The notes under the pieces were generated by a model, which saw only the letters and a list, made by a program, of their open reading frames with translations, did no database searches and was not told the DNA's origin. DNA of 51,533 bases from a virus (Duplodnaviria; Heunggongvirae; Uroviricota; Caudoviricetes), in the IMG/VR virus record IMGVR_UViG_2711768018_000019. One strand, 5' to 3'. Positions 1-50,031 of the stretch are shown here, in pieces (the first letter of the stretch is position 1; each line of letters begins with the position of its first letter). Made by a program: the position numbers and the translations under genes.

Positions 1-573
1 ATGTTTTGCGAAGAAAAAGTAGCTCAAATGGCTGCATACCTACTTCTTAAGCGAGGTGGGCGCATGGCATATCTGAAATTGATGAAGCTGCTCTATCTGT
101 CTAACCGCAAGTCGATTTTGAAGCATGGCAGGATGATCGGCGAAGATAGCCTTTACTCTATGAAATTTGGTCCAGTCATGTCGAATACGCTGAACTTGAT
201 TCGTGGTAAGGCTGAAGGTATTGGTGACTACTGGTACAACCTGATAGAGACGAACGGGCATGATGTGTTGTTGCGTTCAGATCCGAGGGAAATGGATGCA
301 GACGAGGTCTTTGATGAGTTGAGCCGTGCAGATATCCGGATTTTAGATGAAATCTATTCTCTGTATGGGCATATGAACCGATTTGATCTCGCAAACATGA
401 CGCATTTAGAAAGCGTTTGTCCAGAGTGGCACAATCCTGGCAATTCTCGTAAGCCTATAGACCTGAAAGAAATGCTGATCAGTGAGGGTAAAAGCGAGGA
501 TGAGGCTAATCGTATAATTGGCAAAATGGAAGAATCTCAGAAACTTAAGGAATTTTCTTTGCAATTATCATGA
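1..573 (+). CDS. Panacea-domain (DUF4065, SocA/GepA-like) protein, putative antitoxin; may be 5'-truncated by the window edge
   Basis: 190-aa ORF with an N-terminal motif (YLKLMKLLYL ... GEDSLYSMKFGPV) that I recall as typical of DUF4065/Panacea proteins. Its stop overlaps the next ORF's start (ATGA). Confidence 0.5.
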   Translation: MFCEEKVAQMAAYLLLKRGGRMAYLKLMKLLYLSNRKSILKHGRMIGEDSLYSMKFGPVMSNTLNLIRGKAEGIGDYWYNLIETNGHDVLLRSDPREMDADEVFDELSRADIRILDEIYSLYGHMNRFDLANMTHLESVCPEWHNPGNSRKPIDLKEMLISEGKSEDEANRIIGKMEESQKLKEFSLQLS

Positions 574-989
574 CGGATTATCAGCCATACAGGAAAGGAA
601 CTGTGCTTGCCCCAACTGGGCCATGCAATCATCTTCATGTGATTTGTAATGATCCTGTTTATTACCCCGTTAACGATTGTTATTGTGTTTTAGTTGTTAA
701 TATTTCTAGTATCAAGGATGGTGTCCCCCACGATCCGTCTTGCGTCTTGAATTCTGGTGATCATCGCTTTATCAAGCATCCAAGTTATGTTGTTTACGCT
801 GAAGCTATAATTTGGCGAGTGGATAACATGGTTAGAAAGCAGCGATCGGGTGAGATTTCCGTTCATGATGATATGCCAGAAGCTACATTCAATAGAATTC
901 TGGACGGTTTTGATATATCTGATGAAGTTACGCCAAAGAACCTTAAATTTAAAAATAAATATTGCGTATCATCTATTGATGATGAGTAA
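570..989 (+). CDS. Hypothetical protein, candidate toxin partner of the Panacea protein
   Basis: 139-aa ORF, Cys/His-rich, no family recognised. Start overlaps the upstream stop by 4 nt, which suggests translational coupling. Confidence 0.4.
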   Translation: MTDYQPYRKGTVLAPTGPCNHLHVICNDPVYYPVNDCYCVLVVNISSIKDGVPHDPSCVLNSGDHRFIKHPSYVVYAEAIIWRVDNMVRKQRSGEISVHDDMPEATFNRILDGFDISDEVTPKNLKFKNKYCVSSIDDE

Positions 990-1028
990 ACAACAGGAAT
1001 TGTTTCGGTATAGCTTCTGGAGTTTTCT

Positions 1029-1202
1029 ATGGAAGATCAAAAAGCAACCAAGCCACAGGTTAAGTTCGACACAATGAAAGCATTCGCAGGTATGGGTGCT
1101 GCTGTTGAAGTTCTGATGAAGGCTGCTCCTAATGCGTTCACTCACGCTACTGTCTCTGGTAAAGAGCAGCAGGGTAAGCTTCGTCGTCGCAAAGCAGCAT
1201 GA
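1029..1202 (+). CDS. Small hypothetical protein (57 aa)
   Basis: Short ORF (MEDQKATKPQVKFDTMKAFAGMGAAVEVLMKAAPNAFTHATVSGKEQQGKLRRRKAA) ending 20 nt before a strong hairpin terminator. Below the ORF-track length cutoff; coding status uncertain. Confidence 0.2.
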   Translation: MEDQKATKPQVKFDTMKAFAGMGAAVEVLMKAAPNAFTHATVSGKEQQGKLRRRKAA

Positions 1203-1221
1203 TCATAGCTGGTGCTTTTTG

Positions 1222-1247
1222 AAAACCCGCCTTTAGGCGGGTTTTTT
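1222..1247. terminator. Rho-independent terminator between convergent genes
   Basis: Stem cccgcc / ggcggg with loop ttta, followed by a T-run, and with an A-run on the other side (aaaacccgcctttaggcgggtttttt). Confidence 0.6.
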
Positions 1248-1249
1248 CT

Positions 1250-1531
1250 TTAGTGATGTTCTTTGCCCTTCTGTTTGCCTGTTCTGACCTGTTCCCACTC
1301 GATACGTCCTTCTTCTCGTCTTTTGTCTATGTATTCCGCAAGATCCTGAATATTGATGCAACGTTTTGCTTTTTGTGATGTACCGATGCGATATGTAGGT
1401 ACAGGCAACTTACAAGCGTTTGCTTTTGCTTCTGCTGTGGCTGGACTCATACCAAAGTATTTTTGACTAACTGCTGAGAGTTCAATGTTTGGGGTATTGA
1501 ATTCAGCCATCAGTAAAAACAAGGTATTCAT
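1250..1531 (-). CDS. PrtN-family (pyocin-activator-like) phage transcriptional regulator
   Basis: 93-aa ORF starting MNTLFLLMAEF and ending ...IQDLAEYIDKRREE, which matches my recollection of the PrtN/pyocin-activator family of small prophage regulators. Confidence 0.5.
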   Translation of the reverse strand: MNTLFLLMAEFNTPNIELSAVSQKYFGMSPATAEAKANACKLPVPTYRIGTSQKAKRCINIQDLAEYIDKRREEGRIEWEQVRTGKQKGKEHH

Positions 1532-1567
1532 ATCATTTCTCCATCATAACCGGCTGCACCCGGTGAG

Positions 1568-2401
1568 TTACTTATTCATTTCAATAATATTATTTTCTAT
1601 CATTGATTTATTTAAAACCAAAGAAGGAGCAAGATGGTTGTCTATTTTAAACAATGCATAACTTTTAAACTGTTGGTGATATCCGTAACTAATAAGGATG
1701 CTAGAAAAATCTCTTAATTCATCTTCTTTTAAAAAATTAAAATGAAATGGGTTGTCACCATTTATGAACAATGAAACATCTATTATGCAGTATTTCTCTC
1801 CGTTGTCATTTGCATAGAAAAAAATATAAGACATTCTGTTTGTTAAGACAATGCCATTAAATTTTCTTATGTCTGTAGCTATTTTGTTTTCCATGTTTGG
1901 TGCTACATATTTATTTTCAGAAATACATTTAATTTCATCTCCAGATGTCGTGATTATATAAAAATGAAACTTATCAGAAATATCTAACTTAACTACGCCA
2001 TCATTATTGTAAAGGCTGCTAAATTTTGGTGGTTCAACTTTTAAAGAATCATAGTTCTTTAAAAGAAGAGGGGAGTCAAATTTAATAACTTGTAGTATCC
2101 CTTTACCTTCAACCTCCATATTGATTGAAGATATAGCAATTGCATTATCTCTTTTATTATTCAGGATTATGGTTGATATATGCATGTCATATATTCTACT
2201 TGCATTTGCTGAATACGACACTGTCACCTTTTTTGATATTTTTTGCACGCCAAAATATATAGTGAAGGCAGCGGCAAGAATAGATAAGAATTTAATGTCA
2301 AATAAGGACCATAGCCACATTAGTTGCTCAATTGCTTCAGAGTTAATCATTTGCTTTACCATTATCGCTGTAATACAACACATGTGTGTATATATACGCA
2401 A
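1568..2401 (-). CDS. AT-rich hypothetical membrane-anchored protein (possible superinfection-exclusion or abortive-infection function)
   Basis: 277-aa ORF in a markedly AT-rich segment, with a hydrophobic N-terminal helix (FLSILAAAFTIYFGV) and a Lys/Asn/Ile-rich body. Exact start is uncertain among several Met codons. Confidence 0.45.
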   Translation of the reverse strand: MRIYTHMCCITAIMVKQMINSEAIEQLMWLWSLFDIKFLSILAAAFTIYFGVQKISKKVTVSYSANASRIYDMHISTIILNNKRDNAIAISSINMEVEGKGILQVIKFDSPLLLKNYDSLKVEPPKFSSLYNNDGVVKLDISDKFHFYIITTSGDEIKCISENKYVAPNMENKIATDIRKFNGIVLTNRMSYIFFYANDNGEKYCIIDVSLFINGDNPFHFNFLKEDELRDFSSILISYGYHQQFKSYALFKIDNHLAPSLVLNKSMIENNIIEMNK

Positions 2402-2538
2402 TGCAATTATTTTGCAAGTGCTTCATTTACTATCAATAGCTACGTCACGTTATTGTTTAATGGTTCTTTATAGGGGCGGCAATAGTTAAAATTATCGCTT
2501 CCGTAAATGCCCCCGCAGGGGCATTTGCAGTAATGAAA

Positions 2539-3363
2539 TCAGGCGGTGAAAGTACCAATAAAGGTTTCTACTTTGCTGTCTTTGAATTTCTCAACAAGCA
2601 GATCACGAAATTCGTTAGCCATTTCTTCCTGTACCGCTTCCAGCTGAATAATGCGCAGAACCAGTACAGGACGATCGCCAGTGATAATGCTGAGGCGTAA
2701 TTTAAACGGACGTTCTTTCAGACCTTCAAACGGAACGCATTTAAATTCAAATGCCACTGGCATAATGTCTTTGGTCTTCGCTTCGACAGACTCCATCAGG
2801 GAGCGTTTGCCGCTGAAGTCATTATCTTCAAAATCAGCGGTCTGGTTCGCTTCAATTGTGATTTTACGGATCGCCGCAGCCGCTTTGGTTGCCTGAATGG
2901 CGTCACCATTAGCATCAAAGCCCACAAGGTAGTCGGCCCAGTCTTCAATCCATTCTGCCAGTGACTTCTGGGAGTTACGCTCGCCATTAACAGACAACAG
3001 AGCAGAGAACGGAGCTGTCTTTTTCAGTTTGAGAGTGGCGGTGTTATCTGCGTGACCTGGTTCATCAATAGTACCCAGGTTAAGAACACTGACGGCACGC
3101 ATATTATCAGCATCGATAAAGCAGCGGGTGCCTTCATCTGCAAGATCTTTAGAATAACGAGTAAAGTCATCGATGCTGGCAGTGGAAAGCGCACCACGGA
3201 AACGGAAACGATTTAAATTTAATTTTTCCAGATCATGAATGCGGAAATTCTCAGGCAATGCCACAGCATCGGCACCAATCTTACTGATAATTTCATTAAC
3301 ACCCTGAGCAGAAATAAGGGCATGGATTTGATTAATTGCGGTTGCGTCTAAGTTCTGAGACAT
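2539..3363 (-). CDS. YfdQ-like DUF2303 prophage protein
   Basis: 274-aa ORF beginning [21 protein letters not shown]. Size and sequence match my recollection of the YfdQ/DUF2303 family of lambdoid early-left-operon proteins. Confidence 0.5.
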
Positions 3364-3428
3364 AATAAGTCCTCACTATATAAAGATATTCAGTGATGAG
3401 ATAAATAATCGGTTAATTAAGAACGATA

Positions 3429-3791
3429 TTAATGACCTGCTGCGCGGAGTTTTCCGTCAGGTTCACCGGCAAGAGTCAGTAATTGTCCCTGGTCTTCCTG
3501 CAGAATAGTCAGGCGACCACCGCGATTGACATACATCGGCGTTTCGGTGGTGTCTTCTTCGGAAATTTTCCCGCGGTTAGTCGGGCGAACATATGAGAGT
3601 TTGTGTTTGATTTTCACACGGTTCTCATCAAATGGTTCGATTTCCAGGTTGAGTGAGACCTTACCTTTGGTTTTCGTGTTCATCACACCGGAAGCGACTT
3701 CACTGAGAACTGCGCCGATTTTGGTTTCAAATACGCCGCCGTCCAGCTCCCCAATAAATGCCTGCACATCAGTACTGCGTTCGCTAGCCAT
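3429..3791 (-). CDS. Hypothetical early-left-operon protein (121 aa)
   Basis: The ORF-track ORF 3429..3977 has an internal start (MASERSTDVQAF...) at 3791 preceded by an RBS-like aggagca; upstream ATGs lack an RBS. Gly/Glu-rich soluble protein. Confidence 0.4.
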   Translation of the reverse strand: MASERSTDVQAFIGELDGGVFETKIGAVLSEVASGVMNTKTKGKVSLNLEIEPFDENRVKIKHKLSYVRPTNRGKISEEDTTETPMYVNRGGRLTILQEDQGQLLTLAGEPDGKLRAAGH

Positions 3792-4410
3792 TTTGCTGCT
3801 CCTAATCATATCGACCCTGCAAGGTCGGTTGGTTTCTCCACAAAACAGAGAAGAACACCTGCGGTGGCAGCCGCCCGGATGGATTTGGTTATGAGCCCGT
3901 CGTCCGGTGATGCTCTTCTCTGTTTTGTAAAAAGAGCGGTACCAGCCGGAAGCAAGTGTACAAACTGGTACCGCCAAAGCAGTGGCTGTTGTGGTGACCG
4001 GTGCTGATCTCCGGCTTGCGGTTATTTCAGACTCTCACGGGCGTTTAATTGCCCCGCCGAACAGCTCTTTTCCGCATTAGCTGCAATGTCTTTCGCGCAT
4101 CAGCCTGCGCATTCACCACAACGCTGAGAGCACTTAGCCAGTTACGGCACCACACTTTGTCGCGGTTCCATAAATGTCCTCATCGTTGCACCCTGGTCTC
4201 TTCCCAGGCGTCAAACCGAATCGCCACGCTGGTTAGGCGTCTTATCAGCATCATCATTGACTTGCACATTCCGGCTACCTGGTTTGTTTGCCCGAGCAAG
4301 GAGTGGATTGTCCCCTTTAACGTCCCCAGACCGCTAACGACGCATGTGCCATACGCCGTGTTACAACCAAATTTTGTTTAATCTTGCCTGTGCTGTGTTT
4401 CTTTTAGATA

Positions 4411-4439
4411 CATTATGTATCCCAAAGGTACATTGTCAA
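4411..4439 (-). promoter_or_regulatory. pL-like leftward promoter with overlapping operator (OL)
   Basis: On the minus strand: -35 TTGACA (4439..4434), 17-nt spacer, -10 ATAATG (4416..4411). The palindrome ATGTATCccaaaGGTACAT (4415-4433) overlaps the spacer and shares the GGTACA half-site seen at OR. Confidence 0.5.
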
Positions 4440-4443
4440 GTAT

Positions 4444-4466
4444 AAAAAAACCTGCCGAAGCAGGTT
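4444..4466 (-). terminator. Rho-independent terminator downstream of the repressor gene
   Basis: Minus strand reads acctgcTTCGgcaggt followed by a 7-T run, 12 nt after the cI stop. Confidence 0.65.
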
Positions 4467-4477
4467 ATAAATATTGA

Positions 4478-5152
4478 TTAGGCCTTTATTATGTATCTTC
4501 TTGGTTTTCCTGAGAAAATCACTGTACCAATTATAGAGCAATTACCGTTAATCTTAATGTAAGGCTCAGGCCAGTTTGGGTTTAATGCTTTGAGATAACG
4601 CTGTGTTCCATCTTCTATCAACCGCTTGAAGGTGGTTTCGCCTGTATCGTGCATCAATGCAATAACGTCGTCACCGTGGCAGGCAGGGACTTCAGGATCA
4701 ACAAAAATCATGTCTCCCGGGCGGTACTCATCAATCATTGAATCACCAATCACCCGCAAGATATAAGTCATTTCGCCACAGGGTACAGGGCAGGGATAAG
4801 TTTCTGCTGTGCTCAAATCAACCTCAGAATAGCCAACTTCTTTCCATGCTCCGGCCTGTACCCATGATATGACAGGGACTAACGTTATTTGTTTGTTAGT
4901 GATTGAAACGTCAGGTTTTTTTGTGATGTTCGTTGTCTGGTGTTCTTGATCAAGCCATCCGACAGGCAGGTCGAAACATTTTTCGATGTGCCGTGCCATG
5001 CTGTCACCGATATTTTTAGTTGCACCATCTCCCATAAACCTGCTGGTCTGGGTTGGCTCGCGATCAATCATGGTGGCAAAGGAAGAATTCCCGCCAACAC
5101 CATCTCTCAGTTTTCTGGCGTTAGACCGCCGGATGTCATGGACTGTTTTCAT
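4478..5152 (-). CDS. cI: CI-type prophage repressor (HTH plus S24 LexA-like peptidase domain)
   Basis: 224 aa. N-terminal HTH region and a C-terminal S24 signature with Ser in GDSM (VIGDSMIDEYRPGDMIFVD) and a downstream Lys (TTFKRL). Divergent from the Cro-like gene across an operator region. Confidence 0.8.
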   Translation of the reverse strand: MKTVHDIRRSNARKLRDGVGGNSSFATMIDREPTQTSRFMGDGATKNIGDSMARHIEKCFDLPVGWLDQEHQTTNITKKPDVSITNKQITLVPVISWVQAGAWKEVGYSEVDLSTAETYPCPVPCGEMTYILRVIGDSMIDEYRPGDMIFVDPEVPACHGDDVIALMHDTGETTFKRLIEDGTQRYLKALNPNWPEPYIKINGNCSIIGTVIFSGKPRRYIIKA

Positions 5153-13642: not shown

Positions 13643-14695
13643 ATGAAAAATACTGTAAAAATAAACAGTGTTGATTTAATCAACGCTGATTGCCTGCATT
13701 TTATTCAGTCCCTGCCTGATGATTCCATTGACCTGATTGTTACCGATCCGCCTTACTTCAAGGTGAAACCCAACGGTTGGGACAATCAGTGGAAAGGGGA
13801 CGAAGATTACCTTAAGTGGCTGGACCACTGTCTGGCCCAGTTCTGGCGGGTGTTGAAACCTGCCGGAAGCCTTTACCTGTTCTGTGGGCATCGCCTGGCA
13901 TCTGATATTGAGATCATGATGCGTGAACGTTTCAACGTGCTTAACCATATCATCTGGGCGAAGCCGTCCGGACGTTGGAATGGGTGTAATAAAGAAAGTC
14001 TGCGCGCATATTTTCCTGCCACAGAGCGCGTTCTGTTTGCTGAACATTACCAGGGGCCATATCGCGGCAAAAGTGACGGCTATGCGGCAAAAGAAAGGGA
14101 ACTCAAACAGCACATAATGGCACCGCTGATATCGTATTTCAGGGATGCTCGTGCCGAACTGGGTATAACGGCAAAACAAATTGCCGAAGCCACAGGTAAG
14201 AAAAATATGGTTTCCCACTGGTTTGGTGCCAGTCAGTGGCAGTTGCCGAATGAGGCTGACTATCGGAAGTTACAGGCACTGTTTTCCCGTATAGCGGCAG
14301 AGAAGTTTCAGGAACAACAACTGGAACAACCACACCACCAGCTGGTGGCATCTTATGATTCACTGAATCGTAAATATTCTGAATTGCTGGATGAGTTTAA
14401 ATCTCTCCGGCGCTATTTCTCCGTATCAGTCTCCGTGCCTTATACCGATGTCTGGATGCATAAACCCGTTCAGTTCTACCCGGGGAAACATCCGTGTGAG
14501 AAACCGGCGGATATGCTCAGGCAAATAATCAATGCCAGTAGTCGACCAGGTGATCTGGTTGCTGATTTTTTTATGGGATCCGGTTCCACAATAAAAGCAG
14601 CAATGGCGCTGGGGCGTCGGGCCTTAGGTGTTGAGCTTGAGTCAGAGCGGTTTAATCAGACAGTGAAAGAGATAAACGAGCTGGTGGGGAAATAA
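13643..14695 (+). CDS. DNA methyltransferase (DPPY-motif N6-adenine/N4-cytosine family), apparently orphan
   Basis: 350 aa. Motif [11 protein letters not shown] near the N-terminus, with a C-terminal SAM-binding region (DFFMGSGST) typical of beta-class amino-methyltransferases. No adjacent restriction endonuclease. Confidence 0.75.
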
Positions 14696-45400: not shown

Positions 45401-45806
45401 TAAATCCACGAATAACACTGGTGCGCATACCCATAGTTTAAGTGGCAGCACGAATGCAGCTGGTAATCACAGCCATAGAGATGGCCGTCGATTTAACCCC
45501 AGTGTTTTTAAAGATACTTATCAATATGGTTATACAAGCTCAGGTCAAAATACCTGGGGTGTACAAGGCTCAGTAGGTATGTCTACGGGGTGGTTAGCGA
45601 ATACCAGTACAGATGGTAATCATAGCCACTCACTGTCCGGCACAGCAGCATCTGCAGGTGCACACGCGCATACTGTCGGTATTGGTGCTCATACGCACTC
45701 CGTTGCGATTGGTTCACATGGACATACCATCACCGTTAACGCTGCGGGTAACGCGGAAAACACCGTCAAAAACATCGCATTTAACTATATTGTGAGGCTT
45801 GCATAA
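42408..45806 (+). CDS. stf: Side tail fibre protein Stf
   Basis: About 1130 aa. [79 protein letters not shown] matches K-12 StfR-type fibres as I recall them; long Ala/Ser/Thr repeat region; C-terminal His-rich repeats (GAHTHS, GNHSHS). Confidence 0.85.
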
Positions 45807-46390
45807 TGGCATTCAGAATGAGTGAACAACCACGGACCATAAAAATTTATAATCTGCTGACCGGAACTAATGAATTTATTGGTGAAGGTGACGCATATAT
45901 TCCGCCTCATACAGGTCTGCCAGCAAACAGTACCTATATTGCACCGCCAGATATTCCGGCTGGCTTTGTGGCTGTTTTCAACAGTGATGAGGCATCGTGG
46001 CATCTCGTTGAAGACCATCGGGGTAAAACGGTTTATGACGTAGCGTCAGGGGACGCGTTATTTATTTCTGAACTCGGTCCGTTACCGGAAAATGTTACCT
46101 GGTTATCCCCGGAAGGGGAGTTTCAGAAGTGGAACGGCACAGCCTGGGTGAAGGATACGGAAGCAGAAAAACTGTTCCGGATCCGGGAGGCGGAAGAAAC
46201 AAAAAACAGCCTGATGCAGGTAGCCAGTGAGCATATAGCGCCACTTCAGGATGCTGTAGATCTGGAGATCGCAACGGAGGAAGAAAACTCGTTGCTGGAA
46301 GCCTGGAAGAAGTATCGGGTGTTGCTGAACCGTGTTGATACATCAACTGCACCTGATATTGAGTGGCCTGCGGTCCCTGTTATGGAGTAA
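45806..46390 (+). CDS. tfa: Tail fibre assembly protein Tfa
   Basis: 194 aa directly after stf; the N-terminal [58 protein letters not shown] is characteristic of the Tfa family. Confidence 0.8.
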
Positions 46391-46502
46391 TCGTTTTGTG
46401 ATATGCCGCAGCAACTTGTCATGGCAGGATACTGCGGCTGATTTGTGAATTTAAATAGTGTGTTTATTGCTTTATATATAAAGGATTTAATGGATTACAT
46501 AT

Positions 46503-47873
46503 CTATGATATCCCTGAAATGTCCTCTTCAAGCTCTTTTACTGATTTCGCAATTTTAAATTTAAATTTTCTCTCTATTTCACTATTGCTAAGTTTTTTTT
46601 CATTCTCTTTCCCTATCCACATAGAAACAATTTCTCGTTTCTGAGATATATGTAGATTGTCAAAGTTAGGTATGTATTTAAAAGTCTCCGCTCTACCCCT
46701 GCGGAGTTCATAGAAAGTTTTAATCAAAGACTTTGGTTTTATTTCTGATGAAAGGCCGAATCGGCGGATAAGATTATTGATCGTATGATTAACAGCTCGA
46801 AGTTGAGCTGTTGACGTTATTTGTGAGAAGTACGATACCCATCCCAATCGTTTACCTTCAAACACACATCCCGTAATTCTAAGATTTAGTTTCCACTGAC
46901 AATATGCAACAGCTCGTTCTTTATCGCGCTTATTTTTAGCTTGTAGTAGAGCGTGTCTATATGCAGTAAAAATTTTTGCTAAGGATGACTCAAATCTAAG
47001 AATGCTCTCATGTTTTATCAATAATTCTCGATTTTTTATGTGGTAGCCCAAAAAGTTGAAACTTTCATCCAAGCTGCCTACTTTGGATTTTGAGTTCTCT
47101 TCATTTAATGGATGTGGGTTTAAATTTAATGATTGAAGCTTATCAATGATATGAGAAGCTATTTTTGTTGCTTGATATTTTGGTGTTAAAATAAGAATGT
47201 CATCAACGTATCGCATGTACCATATGTCATGCATTTTATTGATTTCATCATCGAAATTAGATAGTGATATTTCAGCTAAAATGTTTGATATCGCTAATCC
47301 CTGAGGTACTCCTCTGGTATTATTAGGGATACCTTTGCTTCCTGTGGTTCCACTTACAGTAGGCACGATTAATGATGATGTTATTAACTGTCTAATTTCT
47401 TTTTTTCTAATTTTATTTTTTATTGCATTAATTATCAATTTATGTTCAATTGAAGGATAGAAACTTTTAAGATCTATTTTTGCATATTCAGCATATAGAC
47501 TGTTGTTTAATGCTTCTTTCAATGAGTCAATTACTGTATGTGGTAGTTTTAATCTGGACTTAGGATATATTTCCGTAAGGCATTCACAGAGAGCTCTAAG
47601 AGTAATTCTGTCCCTAGCAGTTGGTATGGAAATCTGTCTGGGTGTAGAGTTAGCGCCTTTAGATATTAATTTTTCTTTATATGCTGTAAATTTGTAATTG
47701 CCAGAATTAACCTTTTCAAAAATGAAAGTGATCTCATTTTTTATTGTCAAATCAAGTTTTGATGGGCGAATCCGATCTATGCCAATCGCTCCTGATTCTT
47801 TGATTTTTTCAGAGTATACTTTTAGAAGATTTTTTTTCGAGAATGACTTTTTAAAAATTCTGCTTGCAGTCAT
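46503..47873 (-). CDS. Reverse transcriptase (defence-associated, retron/UG/Abi-like; unclassified)
   Basis: 456 aa from the ATG at 47873..47871. RT motifs: RQISIPTARDRI (motif 1), AKIDLKSFYPSI (motif 2), RGVPQGLAISNILAEI (QG motif), YMRYVDDILIL (YxDD active site), FLGYHI (thumb). AT-rich; start overlaps the upstream gene's 3' end. Confidence 0.8.
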   Translation of the reverse strand: MTASRIFKKSFSKKNLLKVYSEKIKESGAIGIDRIRPSKLDLTIKNEITFIFEKVNSGNYKFTAYKEKLISKGANSTPRQISIPTARDRITLRALCECLTEIYPKSRLKLPHTVIDSLKEALNNSLYAEYAKIDLKSFYPSIEHKLIINAIKNKIRKKEIRQLITSSLIVPTVSGTTGSKGIPNNTRGVPQGLAISNILAEISLSNFDDEINKMHDIWYMRYVDDILILTPKYQATKIASHIIDKLQSLNLNPHPLNEENSKSKVGSLDESFNFLGYHIKNRELLIKHESILRFESSLAKIFTAYRHALLQAKNKRDKERAVAYCQWKLNLRITGCVFEGKRLGWVSYFSQITSTAQLRAVNHTINNLIRRFGLSSEIKPKSLIKTFYELRRGRAETFKYIPNFDNLHISQKREIVSMWIGKENEKKLSNSEIERKFKFKIAKSVKELEEDISGIS

Positions 47874-48402: not shown

Positions 48403-48624
48403 AAAAGATCCTTTTTAAAAGCGGAAGGGGCAGGATATATTGGAACCGTTGAACATCCTGCCCGGCAGGATCAGTGAGCATAAGCTCAACAGTAAAATAT
48501 TACTGTTCATTATCAGAGCCGCCCTTGCATGCGCAAGAGGAAAAACCTGCCCCATCCCTTTGAATTATTACAATTTAATGATCTTAAAGTCAATACAAGT
48601 GAATGGTGTCCAGAGATGATGAAC
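48403..48624 (-). ncRNA. Candidate structured ncRNA (retron msr/msd-like or DRT-type) upstream of the membrane-protein/RT operon
   Basis: On the minus strand: promoter-like -35 TTGACT (48593..48588) and -10 TAATAA (48570..48565), then inverted repeats GGATGGGGCAGG (48557..48546) and CCTGCCCCTTCC (48434..48423), 11/12 complementary, enclosing three hairpins. No ORF. Confidence 0.35.
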
Positions 48625-48873
48625 TTAATGAACAAACCACTCGTCAGCAGACTCCCAGGTATCTTTCAGAGTCTCCTGAACAAAAGTTTTAGCTGAATCT
48701 TTATCAGCGGTGCGCGTAACAGAAAGGCCATCGTTGCTGGTGGCTTTTACGATCACTTCTACATCGTCATAACGTTTACTGATGCGTCGGGTTAATTCTT
48801 CCTTTAACGCATCCACAGCACCGGTTGGCATTTTAGTCATTTTTTCTTTGGCTATGCAGATTTCAATACGCAT
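48625..48873 (-). CDS. dinI: DinI-family damage-inducible protein
   Basis: 82 aa; [11 protein letters not shown] ... [16 protein letters not shown] matches the DinI family. Preceded by two LexA boxes. Confidence 0.75.
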
Positions 48874-48887
48874 AAAAGTCCCCTACA

Positions 48888-48931
48888 CTGTATTTGTATA
48901 CAGTATTATTTTTAACTGTATGGATAAACAG
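48888..48931. promoter_or_regulatory. Two LexA (SOS) boxes in the dinI promoter
   Basis: CTGTatttgtatACAG (48888-48903) and CTGTatggataaACAG (48916-48931), both matching CTGT-N8-ACAG, between the integrase stop and the dinI start. Confidence 0.7.
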
Positions 48932-48933
48932 TG

Positions 48934-50031
48934 TCAAGAGGTCTTATTTCTGCTCCTTTGGAGTTCTTCAAAACGATTATGTAAAGATTTCGGATACAGT
49001 TCGGTATATACCTGCCATAGCACGTTTAATGAACGATGCCCTGTAACCTGAGCGACTTCCTCAATACTAAAACCAGCCTCAAATAAGCGACTTGCCCCTT
49101 CTCTACGCAAATCATGGTATCTCAGATCTTTAATACCTAATTTGCTTCTTACCCTCTGAAATCCTGCGGTAACAGAAGTGCTGTTATATGGAAAAATGAA
49201 TTCTGATTTTTTGGGTTGTCGCTGGACGATATCCCAGGCTTCCCCAAGCAAGGCAACTTTCATATGGTTGCCTTCCTTTTTACGTGGATCTTTCCTGTCT
49301 CTTACTAGTATAGATTTTTGTTCCTGGTCGAGATCTTCCCATCGTAACCGGCATACTTCTCCGATTCGCATACAGGACCACACAGAAAATTTGAGGATAT
49401 CAACGAACGGAATTTTTGAGCATTTATGAGTAGATCGTTGTTGAAGGCCTTCAATGAGCATGTTCAGTTCATCAGATGCTGGTCTACGATTACGACGGTT
49501 TGATTTACCAATCAAACCGAGTTTAAGTAGATATGGACGAGCGCTTTTCGCCGGGTTTGATGTGTAATTGATTCCGTATACAGGTTTTGCCGCATCCAGA
49601 ACACTGCCAAGATAACTAACATCGTGGCTGACTGTTGCTGGGCCTGCACCAGCGTTGTTTCTTAGCCTGCAATGTTCAATTACGTCATTTTCTGTCAGTT
49701 CAGATAGTTTGATCGCGGAGATGTCACTATCCATAAGCAGTTCCAGCACATATCTTTTAGTACGGCCTGCTTTACCTCCGGCATTTGGGTCATTTAAATA
49801 TTTGTGTAGTAAGTCACGGACTGTAAGTCCGTCAACAGCATTTGATGATGGAATGCCATATAGATCTAATTCCATCACTTTCTGTGCGCCCCATGTTTTG
49901 GCATGAGCATGTTTAGGGAATGTTTTGCTTTCCCTGTAAGTGATAACACCTTTTTCTTTGATAATCACATTACAGCGATAGCGTGGTGTGCCATCGGATT
50001 TTAGTCGTTTCTCTATGTTATAGTACGCCAT
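48934..50031 (-). CDS. int: Tyrosine integrase (DusA-associated family)
   Basis: 365 aa with C-terminal catalytic-domain motifs (HDLRREGASRL, VTGHRSLNVLWQVY); lies immediately beside and divergent from dusA. Confidence 0.85.
   Translation of the reverse strand: MAYYNIEKRLKSDGTPRYRCNVIIKEKGVITYRESKTFPKHAHAKTWGAQKVMELDLYGIPSSNAVDGLTVRDLLHKYLNDPNAGGKAGRTKRYVLELLMDSDISAIKLSELTENDVIEHCRLRNNAGAGPATVSHDVSYLGSVLDAAKPVYGINYTSNPAKSARPYLLKLGLIGKSNRRNRRPASDELNMLIEGLQQRSTHKCSKIPFVDILKFSVWSCMRIGEVCRLRWEDLDQEQKSILVRDRKDPRKKEGNHMKVALLGEAWDIVQRQPKKSEFIFPYNSTSVTAGFQRVRSKLGIKDLRYHDLRREGASRLFEAGFSIEEVAQVTGHRSLNVLWQVYTELYPKSLHNRFEELQRSRNKTS

Follow-up and report, generated by a model that had tools for sequence, protein, structure and literature searches.

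A DRT10 defence cassette inserted between the stop codon and the terminator of a predicted SOS-regulated prophage dinI gene

When a phage defence system is found directly behind a gene of the SOS response, does it also come under the control of that response? The question is raised by a prophage sequence of 51,533 nucleotides (IMG/VR record IMGVR_UViG_2711768018_000019), the whole of which we refer to as the window. Here a dinI-like gene preceded by two LexA boxes is followed on the same strand by a non-coding RNA (ncRNA), a membrane-protein gene and a reverse transcriptase (RT) gene. A first-pass annotation of the window had proposed that SOS induction could transcribe this candidate defence operon by read-through. 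We have analysed the operator region, the identity and boundaries of the downstream genes, and the occurrence of the same arrangement in other genomes. The coordinates of the features discussed are collected in the table.

Table. Features of the dinI-DRT10 region and of the surrounding prophage (coordinates refer to the window)
Feature	Coordinates	Strand	Remarks
CI-like prophage repressor, Peptidase_S24 autocleavage domain	4478..5152	-	Pfam PF00717, E=1.5e-26
GC-rich hairpin GCCGCAGTATCCTGCCATGACAAGTTGCTGCGGC	46405..46440	.	stem that formerly terminated dinI; lies past the RT stop
UG17 / DRT10 reverse transcriptase, 456 aa from ATG 47873	46503..47873	-	PADLOC RT_UG17; Pfam RVT_1
SLATT_5 two-TM effector protein, 183 aa	47851..48402	-	Pfam PF18160; PADLOC RTasSLATT
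DRT10 ncRNA, about 140 nt	48415..48557	-	long basal stem with small stem-loops; template loop CAACGGTTCCAAT
DRT10 cassette promoter: TTGACT, 18 nt, extended -10 TGTAATAAT	48564..48593	-	predicted from sequence; TGnTA.AAT-like -10 conserved
dinI-DRT10 junction, 30 nt	48595..48624	-	fusion-specific; replaces the canonical dinI 3'UTR from the first base past the stop
dinI-like gene, 82 aa	48625..48873	-	Pfam DinI PF06183; RefSeq 'DinI-like family protein' WP_001217553.1
Proximal LexA box (box 1) CTGTATTTGTATACAG	48888..48903	.	overlaps the predicted transcription start; -33 from the ATG
Sigma-70-type dinI promoter	48908..48937	-	10/12 match; also annotated in mEp460 and VT1-Sakai
Distal LexA box (box 2) CTGTATGGATAAACAG	48916..48931	.	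within the -35/-10 spacer of the dinI promoter; -61 from the ATG
Tyrosine integrase, dusA-integrated prophage	48934..50031	-	Pfam PF00589; RefSeq annotation, dusA adjoining; directly upstream of the dinI promoter

Two CTGT-N8-ACAG sites had been noted between the integrase stop codon and dinI. Both are present, inside the 60-bp gap (48874-48933) that separates the integrase stop (48934-48936) from the dinI ATG (48873). As a criterion for operators we used the gammaproteobacterial LexA consensus, a 16-bp CTGT-N8-ACAG palindrome with an AT-rich centre, close to TACTGTATATATATACAGTA, and the number of matches was compared with that expected after shuffling. The simple CTGT-N8-ACAG pattern occurs four times in the 51.5-kb window, compared with 0.62 expected. 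When up to three mismatches are allowed, the 20-mer consensus finds box 1 as its sole match in the window (expected 0.00), while the 16-mer core finds box 1, box 2 and one site at 13653 (expected 0.08). The CTGT and ACAG half-sites are perfect in both boxes; over the 20 consensus positions, box 1 (CACTGTATTTGTATACAGTA) agrees at 17 and box 2 at 15. The site outside the dinI region, CTGTAAAAATAAACAG at 13653-13668, has three mismatches to the 16-mer core and is located within the first codons of a DNA methyltransferase ORF (13643-14695, plus strand; Pfam N6_N4_Mtase). It could represent a further SOS-controlled phage gene, or chance.

The two boxes are integrated into the dinI promoter. The -35 hexamer is TTGACA (48937-48932) and the -10 can be read either as TAAAAA (with a 17-nt spacer) or as AAAAAT (with an 18-nt spacer). 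Along the minus strand, TTGACA is followed by box 2, which fills the spacer, then by the -10, by box 1, which begins 4-5 nt past the -10 and covers the predicted +1, by an AGGGGA Shine-Dalgarno sequence and by the ATG. This predicted arrangement is the one classically seen in promoters repressed by LexA. The TGA stop codon of the integrase gene is itself embedded in the -35 hexamer (48932-48937), and integrase transcription would therefore run into the LexA operator region without an intervening terminator.

We compared this region with that of other lambdoid prophages, among them elements integrated at dusA, prfC, ssrA, yecD and yehV, and examined ten prophage dinI promoters. In eight of the ten the boxes are located at -61 and -33 from the ATG (P-EibC was judged by eye); the exceptions are JLK-2012, where the boxes are degraded, and Klebsiella phage P18-100, which has a single box. 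The sequence varies with the integration site 5' of the -35 and is conserved from the -35 onwards, and substitutions in the boxes are confined to the central N8. This LexA-like substitution pattern, together with the promoter layout, identifies 48874-48933 as the probable SOS-regulated promoter-operator of the prophage dinI gene, in agreement with the first-pass annotation. Since the support for the boxes comes from sequence, we also considered that both motifs might be chance palindromes in an AT-rich intergenic region and not be bound by LexA. This was rejected, and we give it almost no weight: the matches are far above shuffle expectation, they overlap the promoter in exactly the expected geometry, their half-sites are conserved around variable centres in diverged prophages, and homologous genes have been found experimentally to be LexA-regulated.

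The gene itself is well defined, with a score of 70.9 bits against PF06183 (cut-off 24.2 bits; E=1.1e-19). A 316-bp dinI module, from the -35 to the stop codon, is present in 1,815 of 5,426 complete Escherichia coli genomes, often as several copies in each, and about 100 phage records contain it as well. That prophage dinI genes carry LexA boxes is established knowledge, as can be seen from the VT1-Sakai annotation, the Gifsy operon and chromatin immunoprecipitation (ChIP) in Klebsiella. The dinI-plus-promoter DNA of VT1-Sakai (H0001) and of phage mEp460 (gp21) is 92-97% identical to that of the window, with the same TTGACA promoter. In the VT1-Sakai record, the site homologous to the proximal box is labelled 'putative SOS box' and the promoter 'putative promoter of H0001 and H0002 genes' (that is, dinI and the next gene). 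Both phages differ from the window in that DRT10 is absent and that the annotation names one box, not two; the distal second box has simply been under-annotated.

A functional parallel comes from Gifsy-1/2/3, in which the dinI-antirepressor-irsA operon is LexA-regulated and mitomycin-inducible, with dinI as its first gene (Lemire et al. 2011, PMC3121763). As in the window, a prophage dinI homologue with a LexA box heads the unit, and the Gifsy genes downstream are functionally important cargo. That cargo is, however, a small antirepressor which induces the prophage, whereas the cargo in the window is a defence cassette with a predicted promoter of its own and an ncRNA. Co-transcription of dinI and cargo has been demonstrated in Gifsy (PMC3121763), while for the window we infer it. 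In Klebsiella, the dinI promoter is bound by LexA as judged by ChIP, and the gene is damage-induced (PMC10907235). This chromosomal enterobacterial dinI resembles that of the window in that the LexA box overlaps the start site but has a single box and its own Rho-independent terminator. The 3' part of its mRNA contains a functional RNA, the DinR sRNA, which is therefore SOS-inducible (PMC10907235). DinR arises by cleavage of the dinI mRNA, not from a separate promoter, in contrast to the DRT10 ncRNA.

The same-strand genes downstream of dinI had been proposed to form a defence operon, and PADLOC identifies them as DRT10/UG17, with covariation supporting the ncRNA. The RT matches PADLOC RT_UG17 over its full length (E=1.1e-158; the next best family is Drt3a, 3e-38), and its translation carries the YVDD motif and a C-terminal Ser456. 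The SLATT protein matches both PF18160 (E=1.3e-28) and PADLOC RTasSLATT (E=1.5e-56), and the two ORFs overlap in the order SLATT-RT, the first ending at 47851 and the second starting at 47873. The 143 nt upstream of SLATT fold with a minimum free energy of -57.2 kcal/mol (z = -4.6), and an alignment of 35 diverse loci includes 34 consensus pairs, 17 of them with compensatory changes. The stable fold and the compensatory changes across these loci argue that the ncRNA is real. Its architecture agrees with the published description of DRT10, with an A-B-A' template loop CAA-CGGTTC-CAA. A retron was also considered and rejected: the best PADLOC family for the RT is UG17, not a retron RT, the RNA is of the DRT10 architecture, and Rfam gave no retron hits and no family matching the ncRNA stretch. 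The only real Rfam match near the ncRNA is IS009, which is matched over its full length at 46149-46347 (plus strand; 224.6 bits, cut-off 117) inside a tail-fibre assembly gene (45806-46390).

DRT10 (UG17) is a tripartite ncRNA/SLATT/RT system that produces protein-primed tandem-repeat single-stranded DNA (ssDNA) and acts in phage defence (Tang et al. 2025, PMC12632851; Sanchez-Nieto et al. 2026, bioRxiv 10.64898/2026.04.29.721553). The ssDNA product is of kilobase length, and the ssDNA exonuclease SbcB restrains the toxicity of the system; in Eco3DRT10, Ser456 serves as the primer and GAAT-CATTG repeats are made (Tang et al. 2025; Sanchez-Nieto et al. 2026). The system in the window shares with Eco3DRT10 (UG17-A) the ncRNA-SLATT-RT order, the overlapping SLATT and RT ORFs, a 456-aa YVDD RT, Ser456 and the ncRNA architecture. 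We therefore classify it, from sequence and the template motif, as a DRT10 (UG17-A) system and an allele of the characterised Eco3DRT10 family; the tables of Tang et al. contain no exact match to the accessions of its RT and SLATT.

The template loop of the window (CAACGGTTCCAAT, 48440-48452) differs from that of Eco3DRT10 by two substitutions, and this allele is predicted to make the 9-nt repeat GAACCGTTG. The Eco3 template CAATGATTC (the reverse complement of the repeat), followed by CAAT, is found in E. coli alleles that are 97% identical, namely the prfC-type loci L051 and L053 and also L030 and L036. In the prfC-type alleles the loop reads CAATGATTCCAAT, the published Eco3DRT10 template. 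The full-length loci among these sister alleles (L051 and L053) are likewise located downstream of dinI. As the template loop differs between alleles that are 97% identical, the sequence of the cDNA repeat would be polymorphic.

The new point concerning this locus is structural: as judged from comparison of sequences, DRT10 has been inserted behind the stop codon of dinI but ahead of its terminator. The homology with dinI-only prophages breaks off at 48625, which is the final base of the dinI stop codon. In the cargo-less prophages used for comparison (AR_0085 at dusA, O157 at ssrA, APEC O1 at prfC, and mEp460), a conserved 3'UTR of approximately 100 nt lies behind the stop codon and closes with a strong intrinsic terminator, in which a hairpin of -16 to -19 kcal/mol precedes a T-tract. 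The dinI 3'UTR is also present in VT1-Sakai, with only a weaker hairpin (-9 kcal/mol). The window differs from mEp460 and VT1-Sakai in this respect: the canonical 3'UTR is absent behind dinI, and the 30-nt junction that takes its place contains neither hairpin nor T-tract. The stem of the dinI terminator is found downstream of the RT stop, where the T-tract in the dinI direction has been lost (ATATCAC). Both the stem and TTTTT are intact in the dinI direction in prfC-type DRT10 loci; the T-tract is missing from the window and from the yecD type, in both of which the stem borders directly on a different tail-fibre-assembly module. The sequences downstream of RT in non-E. coli homologues do not include the hairpin, which argues that it belongs to the dinI module and not to the cassette. 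The disappearance of the 3'UTR and the position of the stem downstream of RT thus indicate that the dinI stop and its terminator were separated by insertion of a cassette of about 2.2 kb.

Parts of the dinI module are very widespread. A query comprising the dinI 3' end and about 75 nt of its 3'UTR (L002, 4880-5060) matches 10,779 places in 5,243 of the 5,426 complete E. coli genomes, many of them without an annotated feature. Remnants of the module are thus almost universal lambdoid prophage scars. Other cargo also occurs on the same strand behind prophage dinI genes (for example, the T3SS effector gene espV in JLK-2012 (L059, 294-1738) and a YkgJ-like gene in VT1-Sakai (L056, 2567-3172)), so that the slot appears to be used by various morons.

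Displacement of the dinI terminator beyond the cassette makes SOS read-through structurally plausible. The first-pass annotation had recorded no intrinsic terminator between the dinI stop and the ncRNA, SLATT and RT genes. We likewise found none on the minus strand from 48873 to 46503, using both a terminator prediction tool and a scan for hairpins followed by T-tracts. Nor does the 222-nt untranslated stretch between dinI and SLATT carry a Rho rut-like signature, since it shows no C-rich/G-poor bias (C/G = 1.04), although this is a weak test. The suggestion that SOS induction is at the same time prophage induction is also upheld: with a CI-like S24 repressor, the prophage is expected to be SOS-inducible and the two events would coincide.

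The cassette also has a predicted promoter of its own. Inspection by eye suggests that its TGnTA.AAT-like -10 is conserved directly 5' of the ncRNA in most of 71 diverse upstream sequences. Homology with the dinI-less Xenorhabdus/Photorhabdus-type and related DRT10 loci, whose RTs are 70-83% identical, starts at 48593/4, which is the -35 of this promoter; more distant loci (for example, those of Pseudomonas) align only from within the ncRNA. At a UG17-A model locus, which is not the allele of the window, a native promoter was shown to drive independent transcription of the ncRNA, and cDNA synthesis by DRT10 has been described as constitutive (Tang et al. 2025; Sanchez-Nieto et al. 2026). We found no separate promoter for SLATT-RT, and the 3' end of the ncRNA does not consistently form a terminator in the different lineages, so that polymerase must routinely continue from the ncRNA into SLATT-RT.

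These observations bear on an alternative in which the LexA boxes regulate dinI only, with DRT10 as an autonomous module in the variable cargo slot that dinI and the tail-fibre genes enclose. Transcripts started at the dinI promoter would then end before or within the ncRNA, or be non-productive, and SOS would have no meaningful effect on defence. The conserved promoter of the cassette, at whose -35 the homology with other genera begins, speaks for this alternative, as do the published independent transcription of the ncRNA in a UG17-A homologue and the constitutive cDNA synthesis. It is less easily reconciled with the canonical dinI terminator being absent between dinI and the cassette and located after RT, with neither an intrinsic terminator nor a rut-like stretch in between, and with a polymerase that must normally traverse the ncRNA because SLATT-RT is promoterless and a terminator at the ncRNA 3' end is not a consistent feature. 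Taking into account the distribution of the system described below, we regard an effect restricted to dinI as possible but rather doubtful.

Among the 5,426 E. coli genomes, 188 carry the cassette (at 95-100% identity), and the junction between ncRNA, dinI and boxes is kept in 181 of these carriers, at three or more integration sites (dusA, prfC and yecD/aspS). The linkage in E. coli may go back to one insertion event that has been spread by recombination. Several loci have nevertheless lost it in part. The yecD-type loci have kept DRT10 with a frameshifted dinI. In L030 and L036 the 5' half of dinI has been deleted together with the promoter and DRT10 is still present (as a partial RT match in L036). 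An insertion of approximately 1.3 kb, presumed to be an IS, separates dinI from the ncRNA in L044 and L156, at the junction of the dinI stop with the ncRNA promoter; both have partial RT matches. In L064 (2619-4001), an insertion, again presumed to be an IS, splits the proximal LexA box and DRT10 is still there. The persistence of the cassette in these loci indicates that it is independent of the dinI promoter; retention of DRT10 where that promoter has been lost or separated is a further point in favour of boxes that serve dinI only. The uncoupling insertions (L064, L044 and L156) might reflect selection against SOS-driven toxic expression, or simply randomness.

To examine the wider family, 151 RT-bearing loci from genomes, viral contigs and metagenomes were scanned for dinI, umuD, umuC, SRAP and LexA boxes. 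Among the 71 distinct upstream contexts, a LexA box within 1.5 kb upstream of SLATT was found only in the E. coli lineage, in L099 and, weakly, in L118; the 60-odd other contexts showed neither a LexA box nor an SOS gene upstream. Linkage with SOS was therefore rejected as a trait of the DRT10 family, the association being lineage-specific, and the scarcity of upstream SOS genes is another argument that the boxes act on dinI only. In the metagenomic contig L099, a near-consensus box, TACTGTATATAAATACAGTA (4101-4116), is located between the DRT10 ncRNA and a divergent gene whose 440-aa product has no Pfam match. This box more plausibly serves the divergent gene, which may be SOS-regulated.

A different picture is provided by a prophage of Buttiauxella sp. 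B2 (L006/L046/L158, 1394-5371), in which a perfect box, TACTGTATATAAATACAGTT, umuD, umuC, ncRNA, SLATT and RT follow each other on one strand; no terminator is obvious in the umuC-ncRNA interval. From its sequence, DRT10 has here come to lie behind an SOS operon a second time, independently of the E. coli lineage. Elsewhere, umuDC (in L040) and dinI (in L041 and L042) are arranged in ways that exclude read-through, which again fits regulation of dinI alone in the window. In L040/L152 (IMG/VR UViG_2545824537, 1-4790), an SRAP gene (SOS response-associated peptidase) is placed directly upstream of DRT10 on the same strand, and a LexA-boxed umuDC operon is convergent, just downstream of RT. In L041 and L042, a dinI gene with its own box is found downstream of RT.

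Such recurrent adjacency could suggest a functional coupling that goes beyond transcription, in which the RecA/ssDNA state arising from the long DRT10 cDNA is the target of DinI, UmuDC and SRAP-type proteins, and the SOS promoter forms part of a feedback loop setting the activation threshold. DRT10 is indeed found beside SOS or ssDNA-handling genes in four separate lineages (E. coli, Buttiauxella, L040 and L041/L042), and it makes kilobase-length ssDNA, with a toxicity that SbcB restrains. However, the orientations vary among these lineages, most lineages have no such neighbours, the yecD-type loci retain DRT10 with a frameshifted dinI, and accessory regions of prophages commonly gather SOS and defence genes, so that the co-location may be incidental. 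We consider this coupling highly improbable. Adjacency that recurs in enterobacterial prophages in mixed orientations fits co-location in an accessory region better than an obligatory coupling.

The reading that we prefer combines an autonomous cassette with an additional promoter. Two LexA dimers would bind the -35/-10 spacer and the transcription start and thereby occlude RNA polymerase; following DNA damage, activated RecA would promote self-cleavage of LexA, and dinI would be transcribed. LexA control of dinI is established in relatives, as are the mechanism and the autonomy of DRT10, and these are applied to the window by analogy. Sequence shows where the boxes lie and how the promoter is laid out, which genes are present, where the cassette begins and ends, and that the terminator has been lost behind dinI and relocated. 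A self-contained DRT10 cassette (own promoter, ncRNA, SLATT and RT) would have been inserted into the dinI transcription unit, replacing a 3'UTR spacer of roughly 70 nt, from the base past the dinI stop up to the terminator stem. DRT10 would be expressed constitutively from its own promoter. Under SOS conditions, read-through from the LexA-controlled dinI promoter would most likely be added to this, supplying more ncRNA-precursor and more SLATT-RT mRNA. Read-through into DRT10 and its functional consequence are the steps we infer.

We lean towards the view that SOS measurably raises transcription through the cassette in this way. On the other hand, Rho, promoter interference or the extensive structure of the ncRNA could each halt read-through. 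In view of the cassette's own cross-genus promoter, of the lineages without SOS genes and of the copies without a dinI promoter, SOS control would be at most an added, unproven input. We think it unlikely that the link between SOS and DRT10 represents a selected, functionally important coupling. Transcription in the opposite direction may also be relevant: Q-antiterminated late transcription from the convergent tail operon would, speculatively, run antisense through RT, SLATT, ncRNA and dinI during the lytic cycle, and could counteract SOS induction of the cassette. Term searches of the main texts of the DRT10/UG17 papers gave no mention of LexA, SOS or dinI (nor of 'DinI' in the supplements of Tang et al.), and we found no literature on SOS-induced SLATT/RT expression or on the locus of the window.

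An extension of the preferred reading, which we likewise hold to be improbable, is that immunity is primed by SOS: LexA cleavage would lead through dinI read-through to more RT, SLATT and ncRNA-precursor and would so lower the activation threshold set by SbcB. The triggers would be DNA damage, induction of a co-resident prophage or phage-induced ssDNA, and the DRT10 ssDNA product and DinI/RecA might feed back on the dinI promoter. If this were true, the Buttiauxella DRT10 behind a LexA-controlled umuDC would represent convergent evolution of the same coupling.

If the dinI promoter does feed DRT10, a transcriptional DNA-damage input would be added to the defence system. This would be relevant to its behaviour in the presence of fluoroquinolones or mitomycin, to competition between co-induced prophages and to sbcB-dependent toxicity. 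More generally, prophage cargo can use the compact dinI module, bounded by its -35 and its terminator, as a landing pad under SOS control.
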